The position numbers and the translations under genes are program-made. A stretch of 64,000 nucleotides of DNA, taken from a virus. Its lineage: Duplodnaviria > Caudoviricetes. The stretch lies in IMG/VR virus record IMGVR_UViG_3300037466_002336, positions 1-64,000 of that record; one strand, given 5' to 3'. The notes under the pieces were generated by a model. It saw only the letters and a list, made by a program, of their open reading frames with translations, made no database searches and was not told where the DNA came from. This document shows positions 1,060 to 61,006 of this stretch, in pieces (position 1 is the first letter of the stretch; every line of letters starts with the position of its first letter).

Positions 1060-1228
1060 CCGCGAGAACGTCCGTGCGGCTGCGTGTCGCGCCCGCTAAC
1101 GGGTGTATACGGGTCGAGACGGCCAACGACGCGTCCTGGTGTTTATACGGTGCCACGGCGGCCGACGCGTCTGCGACCCTGTACGTCATCGCGCGTCGGG
1201 CAGGACGCGCCGCCACGGAGGTAGTGGG

Positions 1229-1855
1229 ATGAGCGTCAACACGGACATCTACTGGCGCCCGAAATGCGGGATCGACTGCGACGGGCCGGAGCCGCTGACG
1301 TGAACGCGTACCCGCATAACACGGTGTGCGCAGGTTGCGCCGCCTGCCGTCCCGACCTGTACGCGAACGCGACGGCCGCCGCGCATGCCGTCGTGGTGGT
1401 GTTCCCTGGACCGACGGTCGTGACCGCGTGCACATGCCGGTCGGCTGTCGTCGGCTGGCATGAAGCTGACTGCGCGGTGCGCGCATGAGCCGCAAACGGA
1501 AGAAGCTTGTGTCCCCGGCCACCCGCCGCGCCCGCGCCGACCACCAACGGCAGAACCGTACCGTCAACGGTACGGAACTGGTGTGCGAGGCGTGCGGACT
1601 TCGGCAGCCGTTCCGCACGTCGTCCGGCGACCGGGTGCAGCCGTGCCGGTGCGGCCACCTGTACGCCAGGTACGCGGCGTGACCGGCTACCGCGACATCG
1701 TCGCGAAGCCAACCCCGGCCGACCTCGCACGTCTCGCAGGCTGGCGCACCGACGAACGGTGCGAGTGCGCCGAGCCGCACCCCGCAATCGTCGGCGGCAA
1801 CGGCTACACGTGCGGCCCGATCATGTGCACCCGTTGCGGTCGCGCCGTCACGTGA
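1229..1855 (+). CDS. run of four tiny Cys-rich ORFs (1229-1303, 1300-1488, 1485-1682, 1679-1855)
   Basis: GGAGGTAGTGG RBS before 1229; 4-nt start/stop overlaps; CxxC motifs. Confidence 0.55.
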
Positions 1856-2154
1856 CCGAGCTCGACGTCGACAAGCTGCCGCGCCGCGTCGCGCACGCCG
1901 TGCACGCGCTCCTCGAAGCGTCCGGGCCGTACGCCTTCAACATGGGCGTGCTGAAACCGTCGGAGGTGATGCTGTACGACGCCGAAGCGATGTCGGTGTC
2001 GTCGACCGGCAACGCGCTGCGACGGGCGATGCGGTACGGCCTCGTCGACCGGGCCGGGTACGGCCTGTACTTCCCGACGCTGCTTGCGCTCGAGCACCGC
2101 CGGGCGTTCGAGGATCGGTACCACCGAGACACCGCACGAGACGGAGACGACTGA
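1852..2154 (+). CDS. putative winged-helix DNA-binding protein
   Basis: GTGA coupling; SVSSTGNALRRAMRYGLVDRAGYGLYFPT resembles a wHTH recognition helix and wing. Confidence 0.45.
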   Translation: MTELDVDKLPRRVAHAVHALLEASGPYAFNMGVLKPSEVMLYDAEAMSVSSTGNALRRAMRYGLVDRAGYGLYFPTLLALEHRRAFEDRYHRDTARDGDD

Positions 2155-2420
2155 TGGCTGTACGTGTGCGCGCCGACGGTCGAGTGCTGTGCGCCGCCAG
2201 ACATCCGCAAGAGCCAGGCGACATCTACCTCGACGACGGCCTGCACTACAGGCTCGCTGTCGAGCTGCGCGTGCTCGTCACCGAACCGATGCGCACCGAC
2301 GGCGGACGCGGCGGTCACGACGCGCACGGCGAGTGGTGGTGGCGAAACGCGATCCCCGCCGACGCGACCATCGCCCCGTTCTATCTCGAGCTTTGTCCCT
2401 GCGACTGCGAGAGGAGGTGA
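2154..2420 (+). CDS. hypothetical protein
   Basis: Coupled ORF with phage-like codon usage. Confidence 0.6.
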   Translation: MAVRVRADGRVLCAARHPQEPGDIYLDDGLHYRLAVELRVLVTEPMRTDGGRGGHDAHGEWWWRNAIPADATIAPFYLELCPCDCERR

Positions 2421-2425
2421 ATGCC

Positions 2426-2620
2426 ATGCAGAACATCATCGTGGGTCGGTACACCGACGGCTACGCCGAGGGCGTCGAGCCGGTCGCCGTCGACAACGGC
2501 GTCGGCGAGTACGCCGGATGGATCGAGCCGGAGGACAGGTCGTGGGTCCTGTTCGTCCGCGCCGACCACAGCGTCGAGGTGTACCTCGACCGTGACCCGG
2601 TGACGGGCGCGGTGCTGTGA
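2426..2620 (+). CDS. hypothetical protein
   Basis: GAGGAGG RBS, ATG 2426, overlaps terminase start. Confidence 0.65.
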   Translation: MQNIIVGRYTDGYAEGVEPVAVDNGVGEYAGWIEPEDRSWVLFVRADHSVEVYLDRDPVTGAVL

Positions 2621-4344: not shown

Positions 4345-4457
4345 GACTCGGGTGGGGCGTCGGTGCTGTCGAGTTCTTCGAGTTGCCGTTCAACCTCGAA
4401 GTGGTCCTCACCGTTCGCGATGGCGAGCAGCAGCAGAATCAGGCGGTCGTCGCTCAC
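4341..4457 (-). CDS. small hypothetical protein (not in ORF track)
   Basis: VSDDRLILLLLAIANGEDHF...; its stop shares the CTAG palindrome with the terL stop. Confidence 0.4.
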   Translation of the reverse strand: MSDDRLILLLLAIANGEDHFEVERQLEELDSTDAPPES

Positions 4458-5130: not shown

Positions 5131-5168
5131 AGGAGCATCCCGTCGATGCGCATCGCGACATATGCCTG

Positions 5169-5785: not shown

Positions 5786-5788
5786 AGG

Positions 5789-6727: not shown

Positions 6728-6806
6728 GCCTGCATGTTCAACCGTCACGGTGGTTTCTGCTCCCACCACGGTGCAGAATTCAGGGAACCCGAACAAATGG
6801 GAAGCG
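6728..6806 (-). promoter_or_regulatory. reiterated phage promoter-like element, copy A
   Basis: GGAGCA-N18-GAACAT then 6 nt to ATG; upstream 22 bp identical to 11147-11168. Confidence 0.65.
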
Positions 6807-6832
6807 GTCACCGCAGCCGCCGCAATGATGCG

Positions 6833-8959: not shown

Positions 8960-9122
8960 GCCCGCCATGTTCAACGATGGTGGTGGATTTCGCTCCACCG
9001 GGGGTGTTCGGATTTTGTGAAGATTGCACCGTCAGGGTTGCGGTGTCCACCACCACAGGTGAACGTGCAGCAACCAACCCGTAAGCAACGCGGCCGGGCA
9101 GGGCCGCAAGGAGGTAGTGGAA
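8960..9122. promoter_or_regulatory. divergent promoter region (copies C and D of the promoter family), GGGCAG hairpin and RBS
   Basis: GGAGCG-N18-GAACAT on minus; GTTGCG-N18-GAACGT on plus; shared TTTGTGAAGATTGCAC. Confidence 0.65.
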
Positions 9123-10024
9123 ATGGAGAAGCCGAGCACCACCTACACGTGGCTCGTGACGCTCGTGCACCGCGCCGGCAGCATCGCCGGGCTGCGGCGC
9201 GAGTACCTCGTCACCGGTCGCGACGCACACGAGGCCGAGATCGCCGCCCGCCGCGAGTTCGGTCAGGGCGCCATCGCCGGGCCGTCCGTGTGCGGGCTCG
9301 TCTCAATGAACCGCAGAGGGGCGGTGGCGTAGATGTGGGTCGTCTACACCGACCACAACGACGAGGCCGTGTTCGGCCCGTTCGCCACGGAGGAGGCCGC
9401 CCACAGGTGGGCAAACGAGAACAGCGGCGATTTCGGGTTCGACGCCTGGCGCGTGCTGCCGCTCACCGACGGCGCGCTACCGAAGGCGGCGGCGTAGATG
9501 GCCTGCACGTACACCGAAAACGAGCATGTGGCCGTGGTGCTTAACCGCGACCACGGCCACGTCGAGACGATGCGCGTCATGGCCGCGACGATCCGCTCCG
9601 GCCTCGGCAACATTCAGGCGCGGCCCGAGAACGACCGGGCGCGCACCGCCGCGCGCGAGCTTGTGGAGCGGCTGCTCGAGCTGGAGCGCGTGTTGGCCGC
9701 CGACGTCGACGAGCACCGGAAGGCGGATGCGTGATGTCGTCGCCGTTGTTGCCGCACCCGATGGTGCAGTCGATCACCCTGCGCAAGAAGGCGGCGCAGT
9801 GGATCCGCAACGAGCTGGACATGTACCGGCGGTGGGCGACCGCCTCGCCGTCGGAGTCGACGCGGGTGTGTCTGCTGCGCTCGCACAACGCGCTCGTCAA
9901 CCTCGCGTTCGCCGAGGGGATGCTCACCGCCGCCGACGCGCGGATCGTCCAGGACGTGTTCTCCGACGCTGTGCGTCGCCGCAACGAGGCATACCGGCGC
10001 GAGCTCGTCCAGGTGCAGTCGTGA
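9123..10024 (+). CDS. four small ORFs (9123-9332, 9333-9497, 9498-9734, 9731-10024)
   Basis: RBS before 9123; abutting or overlapping frames. Confidence 0.6.
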
Positions 10025-11146: not shown

Positions 11147-11255
11147 CGCTTCCCATTTGTTCGGGTTCGGTGAAACCACACCAGGATAGGAGCAAAAACC
11201 ACCAGGGACGGTGAACATACAGGGCATGGCAATCGACCACCAGGAGGTAGTGGGC
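11147..11255 (+). promoter_or_regulatory. promoter family copy B plus GGAGGTAGTGG RBS
   Basis: GGAGCA-N18-GAACAT; near-copy of 6728-6806 in inverted orientation. Confidence 0.65.
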
Positions 11256-13076
11256 ATGACCTTCAAGCCGACGCTGGAGCAGCAGCGCGCGCTCGACCTT
11301 TTCGCGACCGGCGAGTCCCTCGTCATCGAGGCTGGTGCCGGAACCGGCAAGACCTCAACGCTGACGTTGCTCGCCGCAAGCACCGACCGCCGCGGCCAGT
11401 ACATCGCGTTCAACCGCGCGATCGTCAACGAGGCCGCCGAGAAGTTCCCCGGCACCGTCGCATGCTCGACCGCGCACAGCCTCGCGTTCCGTGCGGTCGG
11501 TCACGACTACGCGCACAGGATGCGCCGCAGCGCACGCATGCGCAGCATCGACATCGCGAACCGTCTCGGCATCGACGCGCTCAAGGTGACCGCGTTCGAC
11601 GGCGAGGAGAAGCTGCTGTCACAGAGCTTCCTCGCCGGGGTTGCGCTTCGCGCGGCGACCCGGTTCTGCCAGTCCGCCGACGCGAAGCCGGAGCTGCGGC
11701 ACGTGCCGTACATCGAAGGGCTCGACCCATCCGGCCCTGACGGCCGCCGCCGCATGGTGAACCGTGACGTCGCCCGCCACCTGCTCCCCGCAGTCACGAA
11801 GGTGTGGCAGGACTGGACGAGCGTGGAGGGCGGCCTGCCGTACCGCCACGACGCGTACCTGAAGCTGTGGCAGCTCTCGCAGCCGCGGATCGGCGCCGAC
11901 TACATCCTGTTCGACGAGGCGCAGGACGCGAACCCGGTGATGGTCGCGATCGTCGCCGCGCAGACGCACGCGCAGCTCGTGTGGGTCGGTGACAGCCAGC
12001 AGCAGATCTACGCGTTCACGGGGGCGGTCAACGCGCTCGCGCAGGTGCCCGCCGACCACCGCACGTTCCTGACGCAGAGCTTCCGGTTCGGCCCGGCGGT
12101 CGCCGAGGTCGCGAACACCGTCCTCGCGACGATCCCGGACGCGGAGCTGCGGCTGATCGGCACCGACACCGTCGCGTCGACCGTCGCCCCGGTCGCCGAG
12201 CCGGACGCGATCCTGACCCGCACGAACGCGGAGGCGATCCGCAACGCGCTCGAGGCGCTCCGCGACGGCAAGCGGGTGCACCTCGTCGGCGGCACCGACG
12301 AGATCACGAAGTTCGCCCGTGCGGCCCGCGACTTGATGCAGGGCGTCAAGGTCGACCATCCGGAGCTGGCGTGCTTCGACAACTGGTCGGAGGTGCAGGA
12401 GTACGTCGCCGACGACGAACAGGGCGGCGAGCTTCGGCTGATGGTGAAGCTGATCGACGAGTTCACCGTCGAGGTGATCCTGACGCAGCTCGCCGCGTTG
12501 GACCAGGACGAGTCGAAGGCCGACCTGGTCGTCAGCACCGCGCACAAGTCGAAGGGGCGCGAGTGGAACGCAGTGCAGCTCGGCACCGACTTCGAGGTGT
12601 ACCCGGAAGACGACAAGGCGGATGAGAAGCGGCTTCTGTATGTCGCCGTGACGCGCGCCCGTCGCGAGCTCGACATCACCGCGGTGCCGTTCTTCACCGG
12701 TGCGTCGCGTCCGGCCGCACCGGTCGTCGCGACAACCGAGAAGCTGGCGCGGGAGCATGTGGTGCCGGCGCGGGTGGAGCCGGTGAAGGCGCCGGTGTCG
12801 AAGCACATCGGCACGGTCGGTGGCACCGTCGAGTTCGACGGGACGGTGCAGGCGGTGCGCGGCCTCACCACCAAGTTCGGGTTCACGTATCTGACGACGT
12901 TCGTGGACGGCGACGGCAACGTGGTCAAGGCGTTCCTGTCCGAGGAGGAGCAGGAGGGTGAGCGGGTGCACGTCACCGGCCGGGTGAAGCAGCACGGCGA
13001 GTACCGCGGTGTGGCGGAGACAACGATCAACTACGCGCGGGTCGAGCAGGCCCGCACCGAGGAGGTGGCAGCGTGA
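11256..13076 (+). CDS. UvrD/Rep-like SF1 helicase with C-terminal OB-fold-like domain
   Basis: AGAGTGKT, LFDEAQD, VGDSQQQIYAF, LTQSFRFG, STAHKSKGREW, LYVAVTRAR. Confidence 0.9.
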   Translation: MTFKPTLEQQRALDLFATGESLVIEAGAGTGKTSTLTLLAASTDRRGQYIAFNRAIVNEAAEKFPGTVACSTAHSLAFRAVGHDYAHRMRRSARMRSIDIANRLGIDALKVTAFDGEEKLLSQSFLAGVALRAATRFCQSADAKPELRHVPYIEGLDPSGPDGRRRMVNRDVARHLLPAVTKVWQDWTSVEGGLPYRHDAYLKLWQLSQPRIGADYILFDEAQDANPVMVAIVAAQTHAQLVWVGDSQQQIYAFTGAVNALAQVPADHRTFLTQSFRFGPAVAEVANTVLATIPDAELRLIGTDTVASTVAPVAEPDAILTRTNAEAIRNALEALRDGKRVHLVGGTDEITKFARAARDLMQGVKVDHPELACFDNWSEVQEYVADDEQGGELRLMVKLIDEFTVEVILTQLAALDQDESKADLVVSTAHKSKGREWNAVQLGTDFEVYPEDDKADEKRLLYVAVTRARRELDITAVPFFTGASRPAAPVVATTEKLAREHVVPARVEPVKAPVSKHIGTVGGTVEFDGTVQAVRGLTTKFGFTYLTTFVDGDGNVVKAFLSEEEQEGERVHVTGRVKQHGEYRGVAETTINYARVEQARTEEVAA

Positions 13077-13360: not shown

Positions 13361-13464
13361 CGGGGGCGCTGTGGGGGCGCGTGCGTGGCGGAACGCGGCT
13401 CGGTCGGCTCCCGTTGCACGGCCGGGCCGTTTCCGTCGGTACGGGGCAGCACAGCGCGCCGCCT

Positions 13465-13575
13465 GTTCGGGTCTTGTGAAGATTGCACGTCTGGTAGAGC
13501 ATTTCCCACCAGGAGGGGTGAACGTATGGGCATCGGCCGTCAACGGGGCGGCCCGCACTAGGAGGCACGAGGCAC
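13465..13575 (+). promoter_or_regulatory. promoter family copy E and leader
   Basis: GTTCGGGTCTTGTGAAGATTGCAC...AGAGCA-N18-GAACGT; GCACTAGGAGGCACGAGGCAC before ATG. Confidence 0.6.
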
Positions 13576-14494: not shown

Positions 14495-14568
<74 letters not shown>

Positions 14569-14689
14569 CTACCTTAACGCGAGATGACACGCGAGGACCC
14601 GGAGAAGCGTGGGCGAGGAACCGGGGGCCGCTGACGGGTCGGTACGGTCAGGGCGCAGGCGGGCACGGCCAAACAGGTGCCCGAACTTC

Positions 14690-14920: not shown

Positions 14921-14922
14921 CT

Positions 14923-15001: not shown

Positions 15002-15077
15002 GCGTGTAGGCCGACCGCCGCCGCGCGTACACTGATCGACGTCGGGGAGAGGCACCCCGTTAGTCGAGGTAGTGGGT

Positions 15078-16718
15078 ATGGCGAGCAGGCGGCAACGCCA
15101 GCGCAAGGCGGCACACAACACGGGCGTCAGCACCGCCACGGTGATGATCGACACGGAGCGCGCGCTCGCCGAGGTCGAGAAGTCCGGCCAGTCGAAGCAG
15201 CTTCGCAACACCGACGGGGACGCGTTCGCAGACCTGTACACCTCCGACAAGGCGGTGCGCCCGCCGATCGCGCTCGAGGCGCTCCTCACGTTGATGGAGA
15301 CAAACTCGACGCACTCCGGTGCGATCAACGCGAAGGCCGCCGACGCGGTCGGCCGCGGATGGCATCTCGAGACGGAGGACGACACCGAAGGCGGCGGGGA
15401 CGGCGCCACCGGCGGGGACACCGACACGACGGACGAGCCGCCGGCGCAGCCGCAGGATGTCAAGGACCCGGAGGTCGACAAGCCTGTCCAGCCGACCGGC
15501 GGCGTCGACGACCAGGCGCGCGCGGAGCGGAAGCTGCGCGACTGGCTTCGCGACGTGTGCCCGATGCTGAAGTTCCCGCAGCTCATCAGCCAGGCGTACC
15601 GTGAGTACGACGGCGTCGGGTGGGCGTTCATCGAGGTGGTCCGTGAAGGTACCGCCGTGACCTCGCCGATCTCTGAGCTGCTGCCGGTGCCGCCGCAGAC
15701 GATGCGCGCGACGAAGATCCCCGGCGTGTACGTGCAGCAGCGCGGCGACCAGCGCGTCTACTTCAAGGAGTTCGGGTTCGCCGAGTCGGTGTCAGCGAGG
15801 TACGGCACGAAGGACGCCAAAAGCGACGATGACGAAGCGAACGAGGTCATCGTGTTCAAGCAGTACAGCCCGCGCTCAGACCATTACGGGGTGCCGTACT
15901 GGATCAGCAGCGCACCGGACCTTGCCGAGCTTGCGGCGATCCGCGAGTACAACATCTCGTGGTTCTCGTCCGGCGGCAAGGTTGACCGGCTGGTGCATGT
16001 AACCGACGAGGACGAAGCGAACGCGAAGGCGACCGCCAACTCGATCACGAAGAAGATGGCGGAGTCGGCCAGGAAGTCGCACGGGCACGTGTCGGTGGTG
16101 ACGTGGGGCGGCGAGAAGTCGAAGGTGACCGTCGAAACGTTGGAGCCGAAGTCGAACGACGGCACCCGTGAGGGGGCGTTCAAGGCGGAACGGAAGGAGC
16201 TGCGCGCGCAGGTGCTCGTCGCGCACCAGGTGCCGCCGTACCGTGTCGGGTTCGCAGAGGTTGGCGCGTTGGCCGGGAACGCCGCGAAGGAGATGCTTGG
16301 CGCGTACCGGTTCGGCACCATCGAGCCGGGTCAGGAGACGTTCGAGGAGATCCTGGAGGACACGATCTTCAACGGCGAGCTCGGAGGCTACGACCTGGGC
16401 GGGTGGGCGTTCCGGTTCAACGACGTCGATTGGGAGGAGCTGGAGCGCGACATCGAGGCGGCAGCGAAGGCGGTCGACGCCGGCATGTGGACGCCGGACG
16501 AAGGACGGGAGGCGACCGGCAAAGAGCCGCTCGGCACCGAAGGCTCCGGCGGGCTGTACTACCAGGGCGCGCCGCTGCTCGGCAACGGACAGACAGTCGC
16601 GGAGATGGCGGCGGAGAAGGCTTCCGCCTTGGCGGTGCAGAAAGCGATGGACGTGGTGCAGGAAGTCCGCGACGCGCTGCTCGTGATCGCGAAGGGTCGC
16701 GAGCAGACCGACGGGTGA
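15078..16718 (+). CDS. portal protein (PBSX/HK97-like)
   Basis: INAKAADAVGRGW, GVGWAFIEVVR, HYGVPYW, VLVAHQVPP; GAGGTAGTGG RBS. Confidence 0.9.
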   Translation: MASRRQRQRKAAHNTGVSTATVMIDTERALAEVEKSGQSKQLRNTDGDAFADLYTSDKAVRPPIALEALLTLMETNSTHSGAINAKAADAVGRGWHLETEDDTEGGGDGATGGDTDTTDEPPAQPQDVKDPEVDKPVQPTGGVDDQARAERKLRDWLRDVCPMLKFPQLISQAYREYDGVGWAFIEVVREGTAVTSPISELLPVPPQTMRATKIPGVYVQQRGDQRVYFKEFGFAESVSARYGTKDAKSDDDEANEVIVFKQYSPRSDHYGVPYWISSAPDLAELAAIREYNISWFSSGGKVDRLVHVTDEDEANAKATANSITKKMAESARKSHGHVSVVTWGGEKSKVTVETLEPKSNDGTREGAFKAERKELRAQVLVAHQVPPYRVGFAEVGALAGNAAKEMLGAYRFGTIEPGQETFEEILEDTIFNGELGGYDLGGWAFRFNDVDWEELERDIEAAAKAVDAGMWTPDEGREATGKEPLGTEGSGGLYYQGAPLLGNGQTVAEMAAEKASALAVQKAMDVVQEVRDALLVIAKGREQTDG

Positions 16719-18882: not shown

Positions 18883-18962
18883 GACGGGGATGCTGTCCGC
18901 CTAGAATGTGATCCTGTAGGTGTGCGCGCGAGGCACGCGCTCGAGACGTGAGGTAGTGGAAC

Positions 18963-19223
18963 ATGGCGGCGAAGGGTTACCGCGTGAACGTGACCGAGGC
19001 TGTGACGGAGGTCAGCTCCGAAGGCCAGTACGTGCGCGTGAAGAACAAGGGGGCGAACACCGTCGACCTTGGCGGCCCCGATGTCGCGTCGGGGGCGGGC
19101 TACGAGCTTGCCGCGAACGAGGTTGCCGAGTTCGATTGCACCATCGACCCGCTGTACGGCATCTGCGCGGCCGGGTTGAGCACCAGCATCGAGGTTCTCG
19201 GCGTCCGCCGGACCTACCGCTAG
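18963..19223 (+). CDS. putative small virion protein
   Basis: GAGGTAGTGG RBS; beta-rich. Confidence 0.6.
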   Translation: MAAKGYRVNVTEAVTEVSSEGQYVRVKNKGANTVDLGGPDVASGAGYELAANEVAEFDCTIDPLYGICAAGLSTSIEVLGVRRTYR

Positions 19224-19238: not shown

Positions 19239-20072
19239 ATGAAGTTCAAGCTGTGGCGGCGCGCGGACGCTGCCTCCGTGCAGAAGGGCGCAACCGAAGT
19301 CGAGGCGGCATACCTCGCGTTCTGCGCCGAGATGGCGCAGGAGACGGGCGCCTACTACGACCCCGACCACGACGGCGACAACGACGCCGCGCAGCCGGAC
19401 CGGTACACGATGACCCGGCTCGGGTCGACGTCGCAAGGGACGCTGTGGAGCGTCTGCGACGACTCGTACTACTGGGGTCAGGTGTTCGTGCTCGACACCG
19501 GCGACACCGCCGAAGTGTTCCTCGCGAAGTCACGCGACGGCGAGAACCTGATGCTGGCGGAGGCGCTCGCCGAGCTCGACTTCGACATCGACGAGGCCGG
19601 TGACGGCGACGCCGGCGCGGTGCTGCTCGCGACGCTGAAGGCGGCCGGGCCGTCGAAGCCGACGTACACCATCGTGAAGAACGCGACGGTGCAGAAGGAC
19701 GGGGAGCAGCCGCAGCAGTACACGCTCGGGGTTGCGTACCCGGCGAGCGACGGCGACTGGCGCGACAGCCACGGCGACTACGCCACCGAGGGTGATCTCG
19801 AGCAGGCCGCGTGGGACTTCATGCGTTCCGGGCAGGTGTTGAAGGCAGGGTCGGGCACCGATCACGCCGACGGCACCGACCTGTCCGGCACCCCGGTGGA
19901 ATCGTACATCTACCGCGGCCCGGAGTGGGTCGACGACGACGGCGAGGTCATCGCGAAGTCCGGCGACTGGATGCTCGGCGTGGTGTGGGGCGACGACGCG
20001 TGGCAGCGGATCGAGTCCGACGAGCTGACCGGCTTCTCGATCCAGGGTGTCGCGGTCGTGGAGAACGACTGA
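19239..20072 (+). CDS. XkdF-like capsid maturation protease
   Basis: YTLGVAYP..DSHGD..EQAAWDFM..DH..PVESYI..GDWMLGV..ELTGFSIQG. Confidence 0.85.
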   Translation: MKFKLWRRADAASVQKGATEVEAAYLAFCAEMAQETGAYYDPDHDGDNDAAQPDRYTMTRLGSTSQGTLWSVCDDSYYWGQVFVLDTGDTAEVFLAKSRDGENLMLAEALAELDFDIDEAGDGDAGAVLLATLKAAGPSKPTYTIVKNATVQKDGEQPQQYTLGVAYPASDGDWRDSHGDYATEGDLEQAAWDFMRSGQVLKAGSGTDHADGTDLSGTPVESYIYRGPEWVDDDGEVIAKSGDWMLGVVWGDDAWQRIESDELTGFSIQGVAVVEND

Positions 20073-20230
20073 TGGCCGACACGCCGCTCATCGAGTTCCG
20101 TTGCCCGACGACGGGCTGCGGCAAGCTGCTGCTGAAGGTGTCGAGCGTCGACGGCATCGAAGTCGAGGTGCGGTGCCCGCGCTGTAAGAGCAACGTGACA
20201 GCGACGCTTCAGGCGTCCGACGAGAGTTGA
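20072..20230 (+). CDS. Mu Com-like zinc-ribbon regulator
   Basis: EFRCPTTGCGKLLLK...EVRCPRCKS. Confidence 0.7.
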   Translation: MADTPLIEFRCPTTGCGKLLLKVSSVDGIEVEVRCPRCKSNVTATLQASDES

Positions 20231-24200: not shown

Positions 24201-24348
24201 AGCGTCCGTCGTCACAGAGGCAGACACCGCCGCCGTGCGGGTGTTCGCCGCGACGGTGACGGCGGACACGCTCGCGGACACGGCGACCGTGCGGACGGTC
24301 GCGGATGCCACGGCGATCGTCAGCTACGCCGACGACGTCGTGGTCTAG
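21277..24348 (+). CDS. 1023-aa fibre-like protein: N-terminal propeller-like domain plus Gly/Ala-rich repeats
   Basis: Asp-box STDNGATW; about 30 copies of a ~21-aa GGxAxAPAxAHGGxL/V unit. Confidence 0.8.
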   Translation: MATATAATAIGTGTSWGGDGAFGRRGPWKDSSGTLWTAMFVGATVQAFKSTDNGATWTGDGVGTPAASSAVLDVVFDGAGLWVLTADASFALSVAHFAGGAWTTYTGGPTVSPDGNNDYPAMMVRRPNGDLVVFYQTTANVMGKAYRRAYYVIFSGAAWGTPAEVDPGPGNQTNYDVRTMVLGAADRVHFFYQAFSGANSRSMSGTTLDTEVTADIYGIASSKYTSFYDATLGVVVVGPVGGHLSRAPSQASPTFVADGNTYSAGNNVGARFGLAYMSGLLYAFYSTTGDVESTNSPSPNDWTTYAPDVLFNGYPLGGVDATTFDASTIGVVFEDTGAPYYLEFSTGPQTITIQGGMCAAAVVAHGGAVDGSGVVYVTGGVSSTPVVADGGSVLPTGAAIISGGAAHAPPVAFGGQLAGGPTDVFGGCAFASVAPRGGSLAPAGAVVLVGGVAGVAVSAFGGTVRPGVATIVGGAAIAPAAAHGGTVAAFGVVPVDGGVTDAPAVAHGATVAPSGTAPVAGGVASAPTAGHGGTLTPAGSAVLTGGVASAPANADGGTLAPAGHTAVQGGMCGAVAAVYGGSLTAAGVASFQGGVALAAVRANGGQLGATGANEILGGQASAPAAAHGGTMAAAGAATVTGGVASAPAAAHGGTVAATGAEQIAGGVANAPATTHGGTLTASGGAELAGGETSVPVVAHGGTVSSAGAATVAGGVAAAAVTGRGGQLAAAGHATVTGGAAAAPTVAHGGDISSAGGSDIVGGVVGAPAAAHGGKLTAAGAATVAGGSVAAPVTVNGGQLVPGPVTVTGGAAHGPQPVAHGGTVAVAGAAPVHGGETLAPAVAHGGTLTGAGIAHLDGSVVVVSVAAYGGGMAGVGAVDVAGGGTDAPVSAHGGVLAPAGSTAVTGGTVDAPTVARGGGLTATGTAHVDGGLTDAAVVGHGGTLDGAGQVPLPAGSVTAPVVAGGGMVLELVPVGEASVVTEADTAAVRVFAATVTADTLADTATVRTVADATAIVSYADDVVV

Positions 24349-24396
24349 GCTGGAAGCAGGCGCGCGAGGCACGCGCCACAAGACGAGGTAGTGGAG

Positions 24397-24711
24397 ATGG
24401 CTGAGCAATACACCCTCGGCACCGCGGTGTGGTTCGAGGCCACGTTCAAGTCGAAGGACACCGGTGCGGTCGCCGACCCGTCGGAGGTGACGGTGCGGGT
24501 ATGGCAGGACGGTGACGCCGCCGCCGACGTGCAGACGTCCACCTACGACGGCGGACTCGGCCAGGTTGTGCGGGAAGCGACCGGGGTGTACCGGCTGCGC
24601 ACGATGCCGACGAAGCCGGGGCGTGTGTACGCCGAGTTCGTCGGTGACGGCGCCGTCGAAGCAGCCGCCGTCGAGTACGCGATCATCATCGACACCGGGG
24701 TGCCGTCGTGA
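24397..24711 (+). CDS. Ig/BppU-like virion protein
   Basis: ADPSEVTVRV...GVYRL...GRVYAEF pattern; GAGGTAGTGG RBS. Confidence 0.55.
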   Translation: MAEQYTLGTAVWFEATFKSKDTGAVADPSEVTVRVWQDGDAAADVQTSTYDGGLGQVVREATGVYRLRTMPTKPGRVYAEFVGDGAVEAAAVEYAIIIDTGVPS

Positions 24712-25779: not shown

Positions 25780-25823
25780 GCCGCACACACCACCGCAAGC
25801 ACTAGAGGCACGAGGTACTCACA

Positions 25824-26798
25824 ATGGCAACGAGGCTCACGGACTTCATCGCGAAGGCCGCCGGCGATCCGATGACCGCCGACGCCCTCGCGACGAACGG
25901 TGGTCTGCTCTCGAACGAGCAGGCCCGGCAGTTCCTCCGCGACGCGATCGAGGCGTCGGTCATCCTGAAGGCGGCCGACAGCTTCGACTCGAAGTCGCCG
26001 AAGTTCGACGTTCCGGCCCTGGCGTTCGGCAACCGCATCATGCGGGCGACCGCCGCGGGCATGCGCGTCGACGCGGCGAACCGCGTCGCCCCGACGACCG
26101 GCGAGGTCACGCTGTCGACCGAGCTGTTCAAGGGCGAGGTCCCGATCGCGCAGGACGTGTTCGAGGACAACATCGAGGGCGCAGAGCTCGCCAACACGAT
26201 CATGCAGATGATCGCGGAGGCGGTCGGGCGCGACCTCGAGGAGATCGCGATCAAGTCGGACACGACGTCGACCGATCCGGACTTCGCGAAGCTCGCGGGC
26301 GGCGGGATCATCTCGCAGCTCATCACGGCGAACGAGAACCTGTACGACGCGACGGGCAAGACGTCGTACAAGGCGATGTTCAAGGGCATGGTCGGGGCGC
26401 TGCCGACGCGCTACCGCCGCGACTGGTCCTCGTTCGTGCTGTACGTCACCCCGCACGTCGCGGACGGGTATGCCGACGAGCTCGGCGACCGCGCGACGCA
26501 GCTCGGCGACGCGAACACGGACGGCAAGCCGGTGCAGCGGTACCGCGGCATCCCGGTGATCGAGGTTCCGCTTCTGAGCGGCACCGACACCTGGGGCGCC
26601 ACGTCGCACGACTTCTCGACGTACGCGGTGCTGTGCAACCCGAAGAACCTGAAGATCGGGTTCCACCGCCGGGTCGAGGTCGAGAGGTACCGCGAGCCGC
26701 TGTCCAACGCGACGTCGTTCCTGCCGCGCGTGCGGTACGACGCCCGGTGGGCTCAGGTCTCGTCGGTCGTCCTCGGCGAGAACGTCCCGGCGCTCTAG
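25824..26798 (+). CDS. major capsid protein (HK97 fold, XkdG-like)
   Basis: GGLLSNEQARQFL, IEGAELANTIM, GIPVIEVP; position. Confidence 0.9.
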   Translation: MATRLTDFIAKAAGDPMTADALATNGGLLSNEQARQFLRDAIEASVILKAADSFDSKSPKFDVPALAFGNRIMRATAAGMRVDAANRVAPTTGEVTLSTELFKGEVPIAQDVFEDNIEGAELANTIMQMIAEAVGRDLEEIAIKSDTTSTDPDFAKLAGGGIISQLITANENLYDATGKTSYKAMFKGMVGALPTRYRRDWSSFVLYVTPHVADGYADELGDRATQLGDANTDGKPVQRYRGIPVIEVPLLSGTDTWGATSHDFSTYAVLCNPKNLKIGFHRRVEVERYREPLSNATSFLPRVRYDARWAQVSSVVLGENVPAL

Positions 26799-28938: not shown

Positions 28939-28994
28939 GACGTCCGCGTTGCAAAGTACACTGATCTTGCAGCACTAGAGGCGAGGTACGAGGC

Positions 28995-29918: not shown

Positions 29919-29957
29919 CAGGCGAGCACTAGAGGCACACAGCCAGAGGCACAAACG

Positions 29958-37065: not shown

Positions 37066-37140
37066 GCAGCTACGGTACGTGAAGAAGCGAGGCGCCCGAG
37101 GCAACCCGTTACGGCGGGAGGGCGCGGAGGCAGTGGAGAA

Positions 37141-37572
37141 GTGATCCGCGATCAGCGGCACATGCAAGGTGCAAGGCAGCACGCGTCCGTCGACGACGTG
37201 CGCGCTTACTGGTACCGGTTCGCGCTCGAGGAGGGCTTCGTCGACGCCAATACCGGGCTGCGGAAGCCGGGGAACGTGGTGGTGGACGAGCGCACAGTCC
37301 TCGCGTACATCTCGAGCTCACGGTGGGTCGCTGACTGCCCGAACTGCAACGCCGGCATGGCTGCGTGGCCGGGAGCGCACGAGCACGCGTGCTGTCTCGA
37401 CTGCGGTCATGTGTTCACCGTGGAGACGCCGGAGGACGCCGCCGAAGCGGTCGCGGTGTTGACCGCACGACCTGAGCCTTCCACCCGCAACTGGCATCCG
37501 CAACGCGGCGAGACGGTCACGGACTTGAAGGTCGAGAACATCACGCGGGCGTTGCCGCTCGCGGCGAGGTAA
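37141..37572 (+). CDS. CxxC-containing tail-region protein
   Basis: WVADCPNC, CLDCGH, RNWHP..GETVTDLKVEN. Confidence 0.65.
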   Translation: MIRDQRHMQGARQHASVDDVRAYWYRFALEEGFVDANTGLRKPGNVVVDERTVLAYISSSRWVADCPNCNAGMAAWPGAHEHACCLDCGHVFTVETPEDAAEAVAVLTARPEPSTRNWHPQRGETVTDLKVENITRALPLAAR

Positions 37573-38768: not shown

Positions 38769-38815
38769 GCACCACCAGCACGACCACGCACTAGAGGCAA
38801 ACGGGAGGTAGCACC

Positions 38816-45330: not shown

Positions 45331-45656
45331 TGCGCGGCCGAAGCGCGCGCGGCTCGGTTCGACTCTCCTCATTGGTGCTGCTACCCCCTGCGTTGGTGGT
45401 TAACCCTTCGGGTTTTACCGATGGGTTAAGTGGCTGAGTGTAATAAACATTCCGGCTGTACGCAAGACGTACATCCGTGGTTGACGGTGCCCACCTTCAC
45501 CTAGCCGGTAAACGTCGCGGGCGCCCACACCGGCCGTCACGCCGACGCCTTCACAAAGATTTCAGACAATCAGTGGTGGAAAACCCTTGCGCTACGTTGC
45601 AAACCCCGGTACCGTTGCACCGCACTAGAGGCAACCGAGCGAGGGAGGCAGCAAGC
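45331..45656. promoter_or_regulatory. lysis/lysogeny control region
   Basis: AT-richer divergent gap; AACCC-ttc-GGGTT and AAACCC motifs; GCACTAGAGGCA. Confidence 0.55.
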
Positions 45657-46797: not shown

Positions 46798-47462
46798 CGG
46801 ACACCGTCAGCGATCTACTCGAGCGGCTTCGAAGAAGTTGCGCGAGGCCGGGGGAGGTAGTGGATTCCGACCCCGGCCCCGCACGCACTAGAGGCACTAC
46901 CACCGAGGCAGGGTGGCAGCACTCCGCGCAGCATAGCGGCACACGACGATGTCCCGCCCCGCTGCCGGCGCCGCGCCGTGCGCTCGTCGGGCGGGCACAC
47001 GACCACCTGGCCGGGTATCCGGCGGTGGTGTGGCGCGCCGCCGACGTCCCCGAACGGGTGGAGGCGGCGATCCGGCAGGCCGGAAGCGCGGCGCTGCTCG
47101 CCGACGAAGGCGACAACGACCCGCCGTGCACCCCCTGCGACGAACGGCCGCCGTTGTGGGTGCTCCGCAAACCGAACGGGATGCCGAACTACGCGAACGC
47201 CGCCGAGATGGAGCGGTACCTCCGTGAGTCCGGCTGGCTGACGTGGAGCAGTAACGGCGGCGGCCGGTACACGCCACCCGACGACGCATGGGAGCGGTGG
47301 GTTGCCGAACAGAACGACCCGCGGCGTGTGCCGCCGGCGGCGAAGGTTCCGCACGCACTGGACGGCACGCCGGAGGACCGGCTGGCCGAGGCAACGGTCG
47401 ACGAACCGGAACGGCTGGACGTCGACCATGAACACGAAGGGGGTGAGCTGGTTGCCGCATAG
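46794..47462 (+). CDS. hypothetical protein (start uncertain)
   Basis: C-terminal 160 aa look protein-like; N-terminal part overlaps leader-type motifs. Confidence 0.45.
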   Translation: MTDTVSDLLERLRRSCARPGEVVDSDPGPARTRGTTTEAGWQHSAQHSGTRRCPAPLPAPRRALVGRAHDHLAGYPAVVWRAADVPERVEAAIRQAGSAALLADEGDNDPPCTPCDERPPLWVLRKPNGMPNYANAAEMERYLRESGWLTWSSNGGGRYTPPDDAWERWVAEQNDPRRVPPAAKVPHALDGTPEDRLAEATVDEPERLDVDHEHEGGELVAA

Positions 47463-53415: not shown

Positions 53416-53517
53416 CCATCGGTGTTCTGGAGCGGGCCGCCCGACCGGTGTGTGAAGGTTGGCGGCCCGCAACGATTGGGACGCGCCGGGCAGGGCGCGA
53501 AAGGAGGTAGTGGACAC

Positions 53518-54162
53518 TTGACTTGTAGCTGTAGGCCGTACGCGCAGGACATCTCGTGCGAGGTGCACGAATCAAGGCTGCGGACGCTGACCGGACGGAA
53601 AGGGCCGTGCCTGCTGATGTACACCGGCGCGGTCGTGTGGCCGCTCGACCCGCGACCGGACGACATCAAGATCGCCGACGTCGCGCATCACCTGTCGAAC
53701 CTGTGCAGGTTCACCGGCGGGACACGCAAGTTCTACAGCGTGGCGCAGCATTCCTGTCACGTCGCGGACGCGCTCGGCCCGTGCGATCCGTCGCTTGCGG
53801 CGTGGGGGCTGCTGCATGACGCGTCGGAGGCGTACCTCGGTGACATCGCACGGCCGACGAAGCATGCCGTCGCCGGGTTCGGCGAGGCGTACCGGCAGGC
53901 GGAGGACAGGCTGATGCGGGTGATCGCGGAACGGTTCGGCCTGCACGGCGACGAGCCGGATGCGGTGAAGGACGTCGACGACCGGATGGTCGTCACCGAG
54001 GCACGCGACCTGATGCCGGGCAAGCCGCCGTTCGTCGAGCTCGAGTTCCCGGACGTGCAGCCGTACGACTGGTCGGTTCGGCCGTGGACACCCGACGAGG
54101 CGAAGACCGAGTTCCTGTTGCGGTTCCGTGTGCTGCTCGCGCAGGGTGCGGTGCGCCCGTGA
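53518..54162 (+). CDS. HD-domain phosphohydrolase (YfdR/YfbR-like)
   Basis: IADVAHHLSNLCRF..YSVAQHS..LLHDASEAYLGD; TTG start after GGAGGTAGTGG. Confidence 0.88.
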   Translation: MTCSCRPYAQDISCEVHESRLRTLTGRKGPCLLMYTGAVVWPLDPRPDDIKIADVAHHLSNLCRFTGGTRKFYSVAQHSCHVADALGPCDPSLAAWGLLHDASEAYLGDIARPTKHAVAGFGEAYRQAEDRLMRVIAERFGLHGDEPDAVKDVDDRMVVTEARDLMPGKPPFVELEFPDVQPYDWSVRPWTPDEAKTEFLLRFRVLLAQGAVRP

Positions 54163-54662
54163 AGGCGCTGACGTTGACACAACCGTGGGCGTCCCTGGTC
54201 GCGGTCGGTGCGAAGCGCATCGAGACGAGGTCGTGGAGCACCCGCTACCGCGGCCCGCTGGTGATCCACGCGGCGAAAGGGCTCGGGTCGGTCGGAGGTG
54301 CGCGCGGGCTGCTCGACACGGTGAAGCAGGAGCCGTTCCACGAGGCGCTGCGGCCGTTGTACGAGAACACACCCGGCGAGCTGTCGCTGCCGCTCGGCTG
54401 CATCGTCGCGATCGCACGACTCGTCGACGTTGTGCGCACAGAGACGCTCACCGCCCTGCCGTTCTGGCAGGGCTTCAGCGACGACGAGCGGGCGTTCGGC
54501 GACTACACACCAGGCCGGTACGGGTGGGTCCTCGAGTCCGTCGAGCCGTTCCCGGAGCCGGTGCCGTGCAAGGGCGCGTTGGGGCTGTGGGAGGTGCCGT
54601 ACCCGCAAGCGTCGGCTGTGGTCGACCTCGCGCTCCACACATGGGGAGGTGTCCCATCGTGA
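54159..54662 (+). CDS. ASCH domain protein
   Basis: KALTLTQPWASLV..GAKRIETRSW..YRGPLVIHAAK..KGALGLWEV. Confidence 0.9.
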   Translation: MKALTLTQPWASLVAVGAKRIETRSWSTRYRGPLVIHAAKGLGSVGGARGLLDTVKQEPFHEALRPLYENTPGELSLPLGCIVAIARLVDVVRTETLTALPFWQGFSDDERAFGDYTPGRYGWVLESVEPFPEPVPCKGALGLWEVPYPQASAVVDLALHTWGGVPS

Positions 54663-57639: not shown

Positions 57640-57667
57640 TGCAACACGTCCGGGTGGATCACCCAAC

Positions 57668-57983
57668 CGAAGTGTTTGAAGATTCTGTGAACTTGTCTTG
57701 CGGAACACAGGCTGGAGAGTGAACATGCGGGAGCAACGCACGAACGGACATTGACAACCGAGCCAGCACCACGGGGAACGCAAACCCTCGAACCCCGTCC
57801 GGCCGAACCAAATGACAGCGGTGGCACCGCTCACCAACAGCAGGGAGACGATCACTCCCAGGCCGCACGAATAGGGCAACGCCGGAGACGGCGACGCAGC
57901 GGCGCAGCGGCCCCGTGATGCAGGCTCGGAAGTCACCAAACCGTCGCCGGGCAGGGCGACACCGACCAAGGAGGTAGTGGAAC
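57668..57983 (+). promoter_or_regulatory. promoter family copy F plus ~250-nt structured leader
   Basis: CTTGCG-N18-GAACAT; long-range helix 57758-57776/57911-57929; GGGCAG hairpin; RBS. Confidence 0.6.
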
Positions 57984-58370
57984 ATGGCGAAGAGCACCGA
58001 GTCCAAGGGCAAGCAGTACACGCCAGCGCAGCAGAAGGTCGTCGCGCGCATCGTCGAGCTGCGCAAGTCGGGGAAGGGGTACCCGGCGATCGCCGCCGAG
58101 CTGAACAAGGCCAAGACCCCGACGTTCGGCAAGGGCGCGCAGTGGTACGGGCCGGTCGTCCGTCACATCTGCATCCGCGAGCTCGGCTCCGCCGAGAAGT
58201 CGCTGAAGGCGGCGGGCACGAAGGCGCCGCAGCGCAACACCGACACCGTCGCCCAGGCCGCGGCACACGTCAAGCCGACCCCCGTCGAGGCGGTGCCCGT
58301 GAAGGCGACCGTGAAGCCCGACCCGAAGGTCAAGGGGTCGACCTCGCGCAAGTCGGCAACGAAGAAGTAG
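57984..58370 (+). CDS. small basic DNA-binding protein (recombinase-domain-like HTH plus Lys/Ala/Pro tail)
   Basis: GKGYPAIAAELNKAKTPTFGKGAQWYGPVVRHI. Confidence 0.65.
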   Translation: MAKSTESKGKQYTPAQQKVVARIVELRKSGKGYPAIAAELNKAKTPTFGKGAQWYGPVVRHICIRELGSAEKSLKAAGTKAPQRNTDTVAQAAAHVKPTPVEAVPVKATVKPDPKVKGSTSRKSATKK

Positions 58371-58389
58371 TCAGGTGGGGGCGGTGCCC

Positions 58390-58440
58390 CTACCGAGCGC
58401 GCGCTCCCCCTTTTGCGGCGGCGGGGCGCGCGCTCGGTAG
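58390..58440. terminator. strong hairpin
   Basis: CTACCGAGCGCGCGC/GCGCGCGCTCGGTAG. Confidence 0.7.
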
Positions 58441-58476
58441 CGGCACCAACCACGAACGCACAGGAGGCACGAGGCA

Positions 58477-61006
58477 ATGGACGCATACATCGAGCAGCTC
58501 ACCAAGATCACCGCGGCGTTCAACGCCGTCGATGTTCACGCCGAGGTCGCGAACGTCGGCGATGGGTGCCTGAGCGTCGCAGTGTTCCCCCACGACGACG
58601 ACCGTTGGGAGACGGCGCTCGCGGGTGGCATGGGCGGCTACGACGACCCGCTGTCGTTCGACATCTTCGACCCGGACACCGGCGACCAGGTCGACACGCT
58701 CGGCGGCTACCTGGCACACGACGCAACGATCGCGCAGCTCGTCGAGGCGGTCGCGGTCAACGTGGTGTTCGCCGCGCTCCGGCGCGCAGCCGACCTCCGG
58801 TTCGTGAACCCGCCGTGCGCCCCGCACACAGTCGCGAAAGGGCGGGCCGCGTAGATGGTGAGGAAGAAGGGGCCGACCCCGCGTCGCAGGCACGCTGTCG
58901 AGGACAAGCTGCGCGCCGACTACCTCGCGCTCTACGAGGAGCTCGGCCGCGCGCAGACGCGCGCCGCGGACGCTGAGCAGGCGCTTGCGCTGGAGCGCCG
59001 CGAGGTCGACCACCTGAATGACCTGTACACGGCGCAGACGCAGCGCCGCGCCGACGCAGAGCTGGCGCTTGAGCGGATCGCCGCGCACCCGCACGGAGGC
59101 ATCCTCGTGAACATCGCGCGGCACGCGCTGTCGGAGGCGGCATGAGGGTACGCGTCGAGTACACCGTCGACGTGCCGGACGCGTACCGTCGCGCGATCAA
59201 CTTTCACTACGAACGGCCGGGGTTGGCGTCACCCGCGGCGGTTCGCGATTGGCTGATGTTGCACGGCAGCGCCCTGGACGACGACCTGACGTACGACCTT
59301 CAGCAACACGAGCCGGAGTGGTTCGCGTGAACCGCCCGCTGGCGCAGGTGTAAGCGTTCAAACGACGACACGCCCGAGGCAGGGGCGAAGGAGGTAGTGG
59401 AGTGGACGACCCGAATGCAGACCTGATCGGCTTCGAGTACACGATGCGGAACAACGGCCGCTGGCGTGTGCGTGGAACCAGCCCGACGAGCGGCTCCGGC
59501 TACGTTGTGCTCGAGAACGTCGACGACCCGAGCGACACAGCGCTTCGACCGGCGGCGGTCGTGCGCATAAGAATGCATCTTGGTGCGCCTGAGGGACGGC
59601 CGTGACCGCGGCGATGATCCGCACCGCGGCCGCGCTTGTGGAGGAATACGACCTCGACAACGACGCGGTTGTGGCGTTCGTCGAGATCGGCAGCGAAGGC
59701 GCCGTGCTGCGGTTCGGTGCGAACGTGCCCGGCGGTGTGCTGGCCGAGTGGTGGATCGCCCGCGACGGCGCCTACCGGGAGCGCACGTGACTCGGCCGCT
59801 GACTGCGCTGGAAGAGAGCTCGTCTCGGACGAAGCGTGCGTGGCGCTATCGCGTCACCGCATCCGGCGGCTGTCTTGCCGAGCAGTGCCCTCCGGGGACG
59901 TTCCTGCTCGAATGGGAGAACAAGGGCGACGAGTACGACTGGAACGTCTACGACAAGGGCGAGCAAACCGGCTTTGCAAGCGGCGTTCTCGTCGGCACCG
60001 GCTGGATCGTGGACGACAAGTTCAAGGCCGATCCGCAGAAGTGCATGGCGTGCGGGAAGCGCAGGAAGGTCGCCGGTTGGTGGCACTCCGAGGCCGACGA
60101 TCCTGTCCTCGATCCCGTCTGCTCTGAATGCGGAGGCGCTCATGCGTCGTAACCGAATCCACGCTTCGAGTTCCGACACCTGGGACGCGTTGGCCGCCGA
60201 GGTGCGCGCCGACCGTGTCGTAGCCGAACGCGACGAGGCGCTCGCCCAAGTGGACGCGCACGCCGCACCGGAGTGGAAGCAGCTCGCGTACGAGGCGGTG
60301 CGCAACGTCGCCCGCCGGCGCGCATCGTTCATCAGCGACGACGTGTGGGCGCTCACCGACCTGCCGCCCGCACGCGAGGATCGCGCGCTCGGTCCGGTGT
60401 TCCGCAAAGCGGCACACGACGGGCTGATCCGCAAGACCGACCGAACCCGGCCGTCGGTGCGTTCGCACCTTTCCGGCAAGCCGGTGTGGGAGTCCTTGAT
60501 CTACGAAGGGAGGGCCGCGGCATGAACGGCAAACAGAGGGTGAAGGTCGCGGCGCTGGAGCGGCGCCGTGACCACCTCGTCGAGCGGTTGGCCAAGTGGG
60601 AGCGCGGTGACCCGGCCCGCACGCGCGGCGAGCTCGCGGCGGTGGGGTGGGCGTTGCGGCTGATCCGGGCGGCCGACAGCGCCGACGTGTTGAACGAGCT
60701 GGAGAGCGTGGCCTAAGACAACGACAACCGGCCGGGCAGGGCCGAAGGAGGTAGTGGAACATGGCGAAGGACAAGCAGACGGCGCACGCGCCGGACGCGT
60801 CAACGGTCGGCTACGTGGTGGTCGACTTCAACCGGGACACCGGCAAGCCGTCGTTCGCGTGGAACGACGAGATCCACAGCACGGTGACGGAGGCCGCCGA
60901 CGACGCCGAGCAGGCACGCGGCCTTGACCGTGACGAGTACGCGGTCGCTGAGCTGCGGCTGATCGAGAAGCCGCGCGCCGGTTCTGTGTCCGAGGTGGCG
61001 GCGTGA
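58477..61006 (+). CDS. nine small hypothetical ORFs (58477-58854, 58855-59145, 59142-59330, 59402-59605, 59602-59790, 59787-60152, 60142-60525, 60522-60716, 60761-61006)
   Basis: Coupled starts; GGAGGTAGTGG RBS before 59402 and 60761. Confidence 0.6.

Follow-up and report, generated by a model that had tools for sequence, protein, structure and literature searches.

The virus record IMGVR_UViG_3300037466_002336 (84,012 bp, judged complete) represents an uncultured, temperate 84-kb phage from rhizosphere metagenomes (soil), several of which contain a phage of identical sequence. Its first 64 kb (64,000 nucleotides; the window) were analysed with respect to the 10-mer GAGGTAGTGG, which recurs just before start codons, and to a short hairpin that precedes most copies of it; 10-mer and hairpin together are referred to as the cassette. 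The genome has a G+C content of 68% and about 154 genes according to a codon-bias gene call, 133 of them on the plus strand. Genes that can be recognised include those for terminase, portal, MuF, S78 protease, HK97-type capsid, major tail, tape measure and amidase proteins. A large serine integrase and a CI-like helix-turn-helix (HTH) protein are encoded on the minus strand, followed by an early arm with genes for Rad52-like, SSB and DnaB proteins, two helicases, a C5 methylase and a 7-deazaguanine gene set. Three tRNA genes are present.

The 10-mer occurs 13 times in the whole record, always on the plus strand. Eleven exact copies lie in the window, where 0.06 are expected from shuffles, and two lie beyond it (genome 67292 and 79070). 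An earlier sequence-only reading of this DNA had listed the 11 window copies and had placed ten of them before a start; all these coordinates proved exact. A start codon follows 12 of the 13 copies at a distance of 1-4 nt (ten ATG, one GTG, one TTG), and the GAGG of the 10-mer is 7-10 nt away from it, i.e. at Shine-Dalgarno (SD) distance. In the case of the portal gene, the database gene call uses the same ATG as the cassette. ATG is found at 10 of 12 cassette starts versus 47% of all gene calls (p=0.012), and the genes served score above the remaining genes in G+C content at third codon positions (p=0.004) and in codon score (p=0.002). All of them follow gaps of at least 44 nt (range 44-4778 nt). 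They form a mixed group: the portal and two head-module genes, which are late genes, early genes for a UvrD-like helicase, an HD-domain protein and two stand-alone recombinase-type DNA-binding proteins, and small open reading frames (ORFs).

Copies with one mismatch are few. Seven were found on the plus strand, six of them inside coding sequence; the seventh, GAGGCAGTGG at 37127, is the sole plausible real site. As a binding site of ordinary tolerance would leave many more near-copies, all ten positions of the 10-mer are constrained. The best duplex with the tail of 16S rRNA (a generic bacterial tail, which may not be that of the host) comprises only AAGGAGGU at -12.1 kcal/mol. It stops there and AGUGG contributes nothing, in agreement with the earlier claim that this part cannot pair with the anti-SD sequence. 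The hairpin loops pair with the same generic tail only weakly (-6 to -7 kcal/mol), and their conserved CA is not explained thereby. Judged by these duplexes, AGUGG and the hairpin loop would be conserved for a reason other than pairing with the 16S tail. The six bases after GAGG, TAGTGG, contain no C.

At 11 of the 13 sites, a stem of at least 5 bp (Watson-Crick or G.U) with a loop of 6-7 nt containing RGGCA ends 3-13 nt before the 10-mer; counting the 3' arm, loop and 10-mer are 8-19 nt apart. The stems are G+C-rich and 5-7 bp long. Loops are GGGCAG (six sites), CGAGGCA (two sites), AGGCAG, GAGGCAG and AGAGGCA (one site each), with RGGCA being invariant. All hairpins listed in the sequence-only reading are present, the one placed at 24360 being better read as starting at 24359 with a 6-bp stem. 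A genome-wide scan for stems of at least 5 bp with 6-7 nt loops containing GGCA returned 36 hairpins on the plus strand and seven on the minus strand. For eleven of the plus-strand hairpins, a 10-mer follows at 3-13 nt from the hairpin end, which at the background rate has a chance of about 3.5e-26. When stems of at least 4 bp were admitted, all six hairpins with a GGGCAG loop were cassette sites.

The arms of the stems differ between sites and their pairing is retained. Over the 11 sites, 55 of 55 inner pairs are standard, compared to 35.3 +/- 3.6 after permutation of the 3' arms (0 of 10,000 permutations reached 55), and each of the five inner pairs is realised in two or more pair types, both sides having changed. 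In the seven GGGCAG-type sites, 97.6% of cells pair, the value for shuffles being 73% (0/500) and that for slid partners 23-47%. Two G.U pairs (sites 67270 and 79041) would be C.A on the complementary strand; since they would break there, it is the sense strand that is expected to fold. These results support selection of the stems for structure, not for sequence, on the sense strand, and bear out the previous interpretation of the compensatory stems as a mark of RNA-level selection. The predicted folds contain the hairpin and leave the 10-mer largely unpaired, so that the ribosome-binding site (RBS) is not hidden. The start of several hairpins is 10-20 nt past an upstream stop codon. They are not followed by a T-run; sequences such as AAG, CACAG or CGCCACG come next, and then GAGG.

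Table 1. Cassette sites, second leader motif (motif 2) and ~65-nt block. Positions refer to the window unless marked 'genome'; loops are in lower case.
Feature	Position	Strand	Hairpin or sequence	10-mer	Start codon, gene and remarks
Cassette 1	1191..1231	+	GCGCGTC-gggcag-GACGCGC (1191-1210)	1218-1227	ATG 1229
Cassette 2	9090..9125	+	GCGGCC-gggcag-GGCCGC	9111-9120	ATG 9123 (69 aa); downstream of promoter-like block
10-mer, no hairpin	11244..11258	+			ATG 11256, UvrD-like helicase
Portal cassette	15043..15080	+	CGGGG-agaggca-CCCCG	15066-15075	ATG 15078
Cassette	18924..18965	+	GCGCG-cgaggca-CGCGC	18950-18959	ATG 18963 (86 aa, directly before head protease gene)
Cassette	24359..24399	+	GGCGCG-cgaggca-CGCGCC, 10 nt after upstream stop	24385-24394	ATG 24397 (104 aa)
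One-mismatch variant GAGGCAGTGG	37127..37143	+	upstream GCGCCC...GGGCGC closes a long loop beginning GAGGCA		GTG 37141
Start-less copy	46846..46916	+	8-bp hairpin (46846-46853 / 46871-46878) with 17-nt loop	46854-46863, in the loop
Start-less copy, 3' parts	46885-46896; 46900-46916	+	GCACTAGAGGCA (46885-46896); CCACC-gaggcag-GGTGG (46900-46916)
Cassette	53482..53520	+	CGCGCC-gggcag-GGCGCG	53504-53513	TTG 53518 (HD/YfbR-like protein)
Cassette	57943..57986	+	GTCGCC-gggcag-GGCGAC	57971-57980	ATG 57984 (128 aa, recombinase-type DNA-binding domain)
Cassette	59371..59404	+	CGCCC-gaggcag-GGGCG	59391-59400	GTG 59402 (67 aa)
Cassette	60729..60763	+	CGGCC-gggcag-GGCCG	60748-60757	ATG 60761 (81 aa)
Cassette beyond window	genome 67270-67307	+	GTCGCC-gggcag-GGCGGC
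Cassette beyond window	genome 79041-79084	+	GCGCC-aggcag-GGTGC
Motif 2 copies	226-238, 25799-25810, 28972-28982, 29926-29937, 38788-38799, 45622-45633, 46885-46896; genome 71817	+
Motif 2 variants with extra G	near 13554; genome 66940
Motif 2 leader of major capsid gene	25799..25826	+	GCACTAGAGGCA-c-GAGGTA-n8-ATG
~65-nt block	6728-6815 (minus), 8998-9078, 11148-11232, 13462-13540, 57672-57745

Behind cassette 1 (1229-1852), the frame is open for only 24 codons, and a weak coding signal shifts through three frames, all of which encode Cys-rich stretches; possible explanations are a frameshift in the gene, a series of mini-ORFs or an error of the assembly. Further, two small proteins (57984-58370; genome 67305-67769) have as their only match the DNA-binding 'Recombinase' domain found in large serine recombinases. 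Both genes lie behind near-identical cassettes (stems GTCGCC/GGCGAC and GTCGCC/GGCGGC), and gene and leader were probably duplicated together.

The explanation favoured here, with moderate confidence, is that of an mRNA leader cassette, similar in kind to what are called start-associated sequences (SAS) in actinobacteriophages, which would set translation initiation. Translation initiation on mRNA is suggested by position, strand, SD spacing, ATG preference and codon bias. Moreover, no promoter fits between hairpin and gene, since several hairpins begin soon after an upstream stop codon and the 10-mer reaches to within 1-4 nt of the start. GAGG would serve as the SD core, and TAGTGG and the upstream hairpin as extra parts of the translation-initiation region. 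In the sense transcript, the hairpin would fold immediately 5' of the ribosome's footprint, with the RBS left single-stranded. As the stems have drifted and the loop and UAGUGG are fixed, loop and spacer would be read by sequence, which requires a partner: the stem would need only to pair, and RGGCA in the loop and UAGUGG would be recognised sequence-specifically by a trans-acting factor, a host ribosomal component or a phage factor being the candidates. The repeat, its position and strand, the compensating stems, the lack of 16S complementarity and the preferences for ATG and codon bias are observed; an action on translation, a partner for loop and spacer and the effect's direction are inferred. 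The likely outcome would be strong, context-independent initiation at genes located after an intergenic gap, possibly combined with local protection of the mRNA. Early and late genes share the cassette; this makes a temporal regulon doubtful and suggests that a constitutive 'strong start' module fits better. The post-transcriptional regulon under control of an RNA-binding protein that had been put forward earlier found no support, and the mixture of early and late genes argues against a single temporal class.

SAS were described as GGGATAGGAGCCC in cluster K mycobacteriophages (Pope et al. 2011, PMC3203893) and as GGGAAAGGACCCC in cluster EF Microbacterium phages (PMC7302621), and their role was still given as unknown in papers of 2024-2025 (PMC11373665, PMC12699233). 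The likeness to the cluster K sequences noted in the sequence-only reading holds nearly point for point: (i) both elements are exact, asymmetric repeats of 10-13 nt with 10-19 copies per genome in a single orientation; (ii) both coincide with the RBS, a few nt ahead of the start codon, and combine an SD core with conserved bases unable to pair with 16S rRNA; (iii) both prefer ATG and genes after intergenic gaps; (iv) a second conserved element is present upstream of about half or more of the copies. However, the sequence is unrelated, being neither GGGATAGGAGCCC nor GGGAAAGGACCCC, the phage falls outside clusters K and EF, and the sites extend beyond the non-structural arm to the portal and head genes. 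Also, where SAS have a 17-bp imperfect inverted repeat as their upstream partner, the cassette has a short hairpin whose stem is free and whose loop is fixed. On sequence grounds the cassette is an analogue of SAS and not a member.

The partner of SAS in cluster K phages, termed extended SAS (ESAS), contains SigA-like -35/-10 hexamers and an inverted repeat in phage Adephagia, and has been read as a SigA promoter with an operator (PMC11373665). Its inverted repeat is located immediately upstream of many SAS copies, much as the hairpin described here precedes most copies of the 10-mer. The 'structural part' that had been named earlier as a difference from cluster K is therefore not distinctive as such; what does set the cassette apart is full compensation and the lack of a fitting promoter. 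ESAS arms keep a consensus, and departures from it break the pairing, whereas the arms of the present hairpins (5-7 nt) have no consensus and show full compensation with G.U pairs. Likewise, ESAS encloses SigA-like hexamers, whereas the spacer to the RBS of 3-13 nt has no room for a promoter.

Phage leader hairpins that are bound by a protein include boxB of lambda and P22 (N protein), the leader of Mu mom (Com) and the operator of MS2/PP7. Like the present hairpins, these are short and are recognised by their loop, with a stem that has only to pair; the effect of Com and of the coat proteins is on regions of translation initiation. Each of them is present in one or two copies per genome and its protein partner is known, whereas 11-12 copies with a putative partner are present here, and the hairpin neither contains nor sequesters the RBS. 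With regard to mom-type activation, in which melting of a leader hairpin by Com frees the RBS, the Com-like protein of this phage scores below threshold and the RBS is not sequestered in predicted folds. A further parallel is provided by STAB-SD or standby sites, where an SD-like sequence upstream of the true RBS holds the 30S subunit, as in Bacillus cryIIIA. The cassette likewise displays a second G-rich, SD-like sequence (GAGGCA or GGGCAGG) in single-stranded form 10-25 nt upstream of the true SD; the weak pairing of the loop with the 16S tail and the unexplained conservation of CA distinguish it from such sites.

Several points weigh against a translational leader cassette. The explanation is drawn from the sequence of one genome, the only one in which the cassette was found, and the covariation is that of paralogous sites. 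The number of distinct inner stems is only seven, owing to the near-copies 9090/60729, 18924/24359 and 57943/67270. The 10-mer at 46854 is the sole copy without a start codon, and that at 11244 has no hairpin. Folding energy is weak, with a mean z of -1.1 versus dinucleotide shuffles in this G+C-rich genome (p=0.005 when compared with 50 other upstream regions); the case for the hairpin is one of architecture and compensation, not of energy. Finally, the only RNA-binding folds detected among the phage genes are a marginal ASCH protein (54159-54662) and a Com-like zinc ribbon (52-aa product of 20072-20230). Both had been suggested as binders and are weak leads: the former passes its Pfam cut-off narrowly, and the latter stays below it (19.5 bits on Zn_ribbon_Com, cut-off 22.9).

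The least unlikely of the alternatives is a site for RNA processing or stability, at which the hairpin would mark cleavage of polycistronic transcripts or the stop of 3'-to-5' decay. The upstream cistron would end in a protective hairpin and the downstream part would become a fresh mRNA with an open RBS, resulting in segmental mRNA lifetimes; the fixed loop would be the recognition site of a nuclease or a protecting protein. Such a function would agree with the location of several hairpins 10-40 nt past an upstream stop codon in operon-like gene runs, with the RBS not being sequestered, and with a conserved loop on a free stem. However, RNase III requires longer stems than the 5-7 bp present here, and processing leaves the invariant TAGTGG and the tight link to start codon and ATG unexplained.

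We regard as improbable a signal at the DNA level, of the sort proposed for the ESAS of cluster K phages, with RNA polymerase or a DNA-binding regulator recognising the element as promoter, operator or terminator-promoter junction. Inverted repeats are a common form of operators, the phage encodes small HTH proteins of the GerE and sigma-70-region-4 types, and the ESAS of Adephagia combines SigA-like promoters with an inverted repeat (PMC11373665). Yet the arms vary from site to site such that no sequence-specific dimer could read them, and only pairing, G.U included, is kept. The variation of 8-19 nt between loop and 10-mer is incompatible with -35/-10 spacing, and with a 10-mer ending 1-4 nt before the start codon no transcript start at this place could keep the SD. 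In addition, the hairpins are not classical intrinsic terminators as a T-run is missing, and a separate promoter-like block exists further upstream at some sites.

Equally improbable is a more far-reaching version of the translational cassette, in which the phage would run a private translational code consisting of a two-part RNA address (loop RGGCA plus UAGUGG) on about a dozen mRNAs, a dedicated phage factor and the 46.85-kb copy, with both parts in hairpin loops, as a decoy or antisense master switch. If true, it would be the first mechanism for an SAS-type motif.

The start-less copy lies in a non-coding gap of the early arm (46798-47024, about 200 nt), together with motif 2 (see below) and a hairpin with a GAGGCAG loop; this gap may be a small RNA gene, with a decoy or an antisense product. 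That RNA from this copy switches the whole set of cassette genes is likewise improbable. A sense RNA would display the 10-mer and the GAGGCAG loop as a decoy for the reader, and an antisense RNA, with CCACUACCUC and CUGCCUC in loops, would pair with all 12 leaders and block initiation. Consistent with such a role, no coding signal is detectable in any plus-strand frame from 46798 to about 46950, the 10-mer is presented in a 17-nt loop by eight perfect closing pairs next to motif 2 and the GAGGCAG-loop hairpin, and the gap is 1.5 kb from the CI-like repressor gene in the early arm. Minus-strand RNA of the gap folds above shuffles (z -3.75, 0/200), whereas that of the plus strand does not (z -1.39). 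On the other side, this is a single instance in a single genome, the copy could be the remnant of a lost gene start, and early and late genes would be affected alike. Least probable by far is that the cassette has no function of its own and is a good RBS with flanks that was copied by duplication or recombination and has not yet decayed: some sites do share at least 30 identical bases with their flanks (9086-9125 versus 60725-60763), enough to confuse assembly graphs, and two of the genes served are paralogues, but neutral decay predicts that loop and 10-mer change like the stems, whereas the stems differ at 4 of 5 inner positions with compensation and loop core and 10-mer are invariant, and most genes served are unrelated.

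Besides the cassette, the genome contains a second leader motif, (G)CACTAGAGGC(A), referred to as motif 2, with seven to eight copies, all on the plus strand. It is located 11-25 nt before the starts of the capsid gene, of tail-module genes 28995 and 29958, of the lysin gene, of the first early gene and of others, and in every case GAGG(T/C)A comes after it at SD distance. Motif 2 is common to distant relatives, namely contigs L131 (portal 40% identical), L132 (47%) and L129 (40%), and a variant is found in L311. The portal gene has it as leader in L131 and L132, and in L131 and L311 the motif or a variant precedes the 86-aa gene in front of the protease gene; in relatives with 40-47% portal identity, the form at these two genes is ACTAGAGGC-n-GAGGTA(G). 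Thus, the portal and the 86-aa head-module genes have the hairpin cassette in this phage and motif 2 in relatives, from which it appears that the two leaders are interchangeable at orthologous genes. They share GAGGCA, which would be displayed in a loop in the cassette; the AGAGGCA loop of the portal hairpin is the core of motif 2. GAGGTAG is the preferred RBS context of the lineage, and this phage appears to have extended it to GAGGTAGTGG.

Motif 2 resembles the CACTATAG core of T7-type promoters (CACTAGAGG versus CACTATAGG), and no phage RNA polymerase was found. Its conservation extends over only 9-12 nt, versus about 20 bp for a T7-type promoter. PF00940 (phage RNA polymerase) had no match in the phage, but none in control genomes either. 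A different conserved block of about 65 nt, TGTTCGGGTT..TGTGAA..TTGCAC..CCACCA..GGTGAACRTRCAGG, has four to five copies upstream of gene blocks, three of them upstream of cassette sites, and is probably a promoter/operator family.

Searches beyond this genome were made with both sequence and structure models. A covariance model built from seven sites, as had been proposed before, recovered the full set of 13 copies plus the 37127 variant from the genome with nothing else above noise, and gave no significant hit in 1.2 Mb of related contigs. With Rfam, only tRNAs passed the gathering thresholds in the window, and in six 3-kb loci nothing overlapped the cassettes at E up to 5; the earlier view that the motif is not a described one thus held as far as Rfam families are concerned. 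Pattern scans of IMG/VR and metagenome contigs yielded single chance matches or the antisense of a conserved cellular gene, and a capsid-profile scan returned 80 loci, none with either motif. Apparent matches in L165, L204 and L213 were discarded as chance matches in coding sequence. Among hairpins with similar loops in relatives, a single intergenic case, the sole parallel outside this genome, was found in L129 (8174-8240; GCCGCC-gggtag-GGCGGC, followed by CCACTAGAGGCG, SD and ATG), where TAG of the loop is the stop codon of the upstream gene. Four rhizosphere DNA runs compared over 9-29 kb contained the same phage without variation in the cassette and added nothing on covariation. In the collections searched, the cassette appears to be private to this phage.

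Proteins with NusG-like, CSD or S1 domains or with sigma-70 region 2 were searched for in the phage and none was found. Several other candidates were rejected: (i) a resemblance to the RfaH ops element (GGCGGTAGnnTG) was dropped as no NusG-like gene was found; (ii) sigma-54 or ECF-type promoters did not fit; (iii) as a -10 element, the 10-mer is too near to the start codon; (iv) as an intrinsic terminator, the hairpin is not followed by a U-run; (v) CsrA/RsmA sites have GGA in a hairpin loop and again at the SD, and, judged by the sites alone, the commonest loop, GGGCAG, is without GGA; (vi) the complementarity between the 10-mer and the tRNA-Met 3' end with its trailer (CCACTACCTT, 14566-14575) was within chance for one-mismatch matches.

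The tRNA-Met in question (14495-14569) looks by eye like an initiator and seems near to bacterial tRNA-fMet throughout. It has A11:U24, position 1:72 is unpaired (A1 x C72 in place of C1 x A72), the anticodon stem has only two of three G-C pairs, and CCA is not encoded. A 1023-aa protein is encoded between the head protease and capsid genes (21277-24348), without a sequence match in Pfam, PHROG or PDB; L131 has a 1280-aa counterpart at the equivalent position. The idea that this orphan is an RNA polymerase was dropped for want of a family or PDB match. Outside the window, the 7-deazaguanine DNA-modification set (genome 69570-73395; L009 5570-9395) comprises radical-SAM (QueE-like), QueC, GTP cyclohydrolase I and DpdA/TGT-like transglycosylase proteins, and a DUF1643 protein is encoded at genome 64421-65080.

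No DNA-level match to deposited phages was obtained by megablast, and the portal protein is at most 27% identical to that of any deposited phage. As all lysin matches are to actinophages and portal matches are mostly to Streptomyces phages, an actinobacterial host is likely. A host search of genome contigs returned only three contigs of metagenome-assembled genomes from unrelated phyla, and no host was named. The closest relative, from sample JGI 3300047677, has a portal that is 82% identical, and a scan of IMG/VR with portal peptides gave no relative. Among the public runs with this phage, no RNA run was found.

SAS have been known since 2011 and are present in hundreds of sequenced actinophages, still without a mechanism. 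This phage provides an independent, unrelated example of the SAS type whose upstream partner has the marks of RNA structure, i.e. compensatory stems, G.U pairs and a fixed loop. The exchange of leaders at the portal gene, with motif 2 in relatives and the cassette here, points to a family of leader modules that can replace one another in this uncultured lineage. The marks of RNA structure would turn the vague idea that something binds near the start into three separable parts: loop, stem and spacer.

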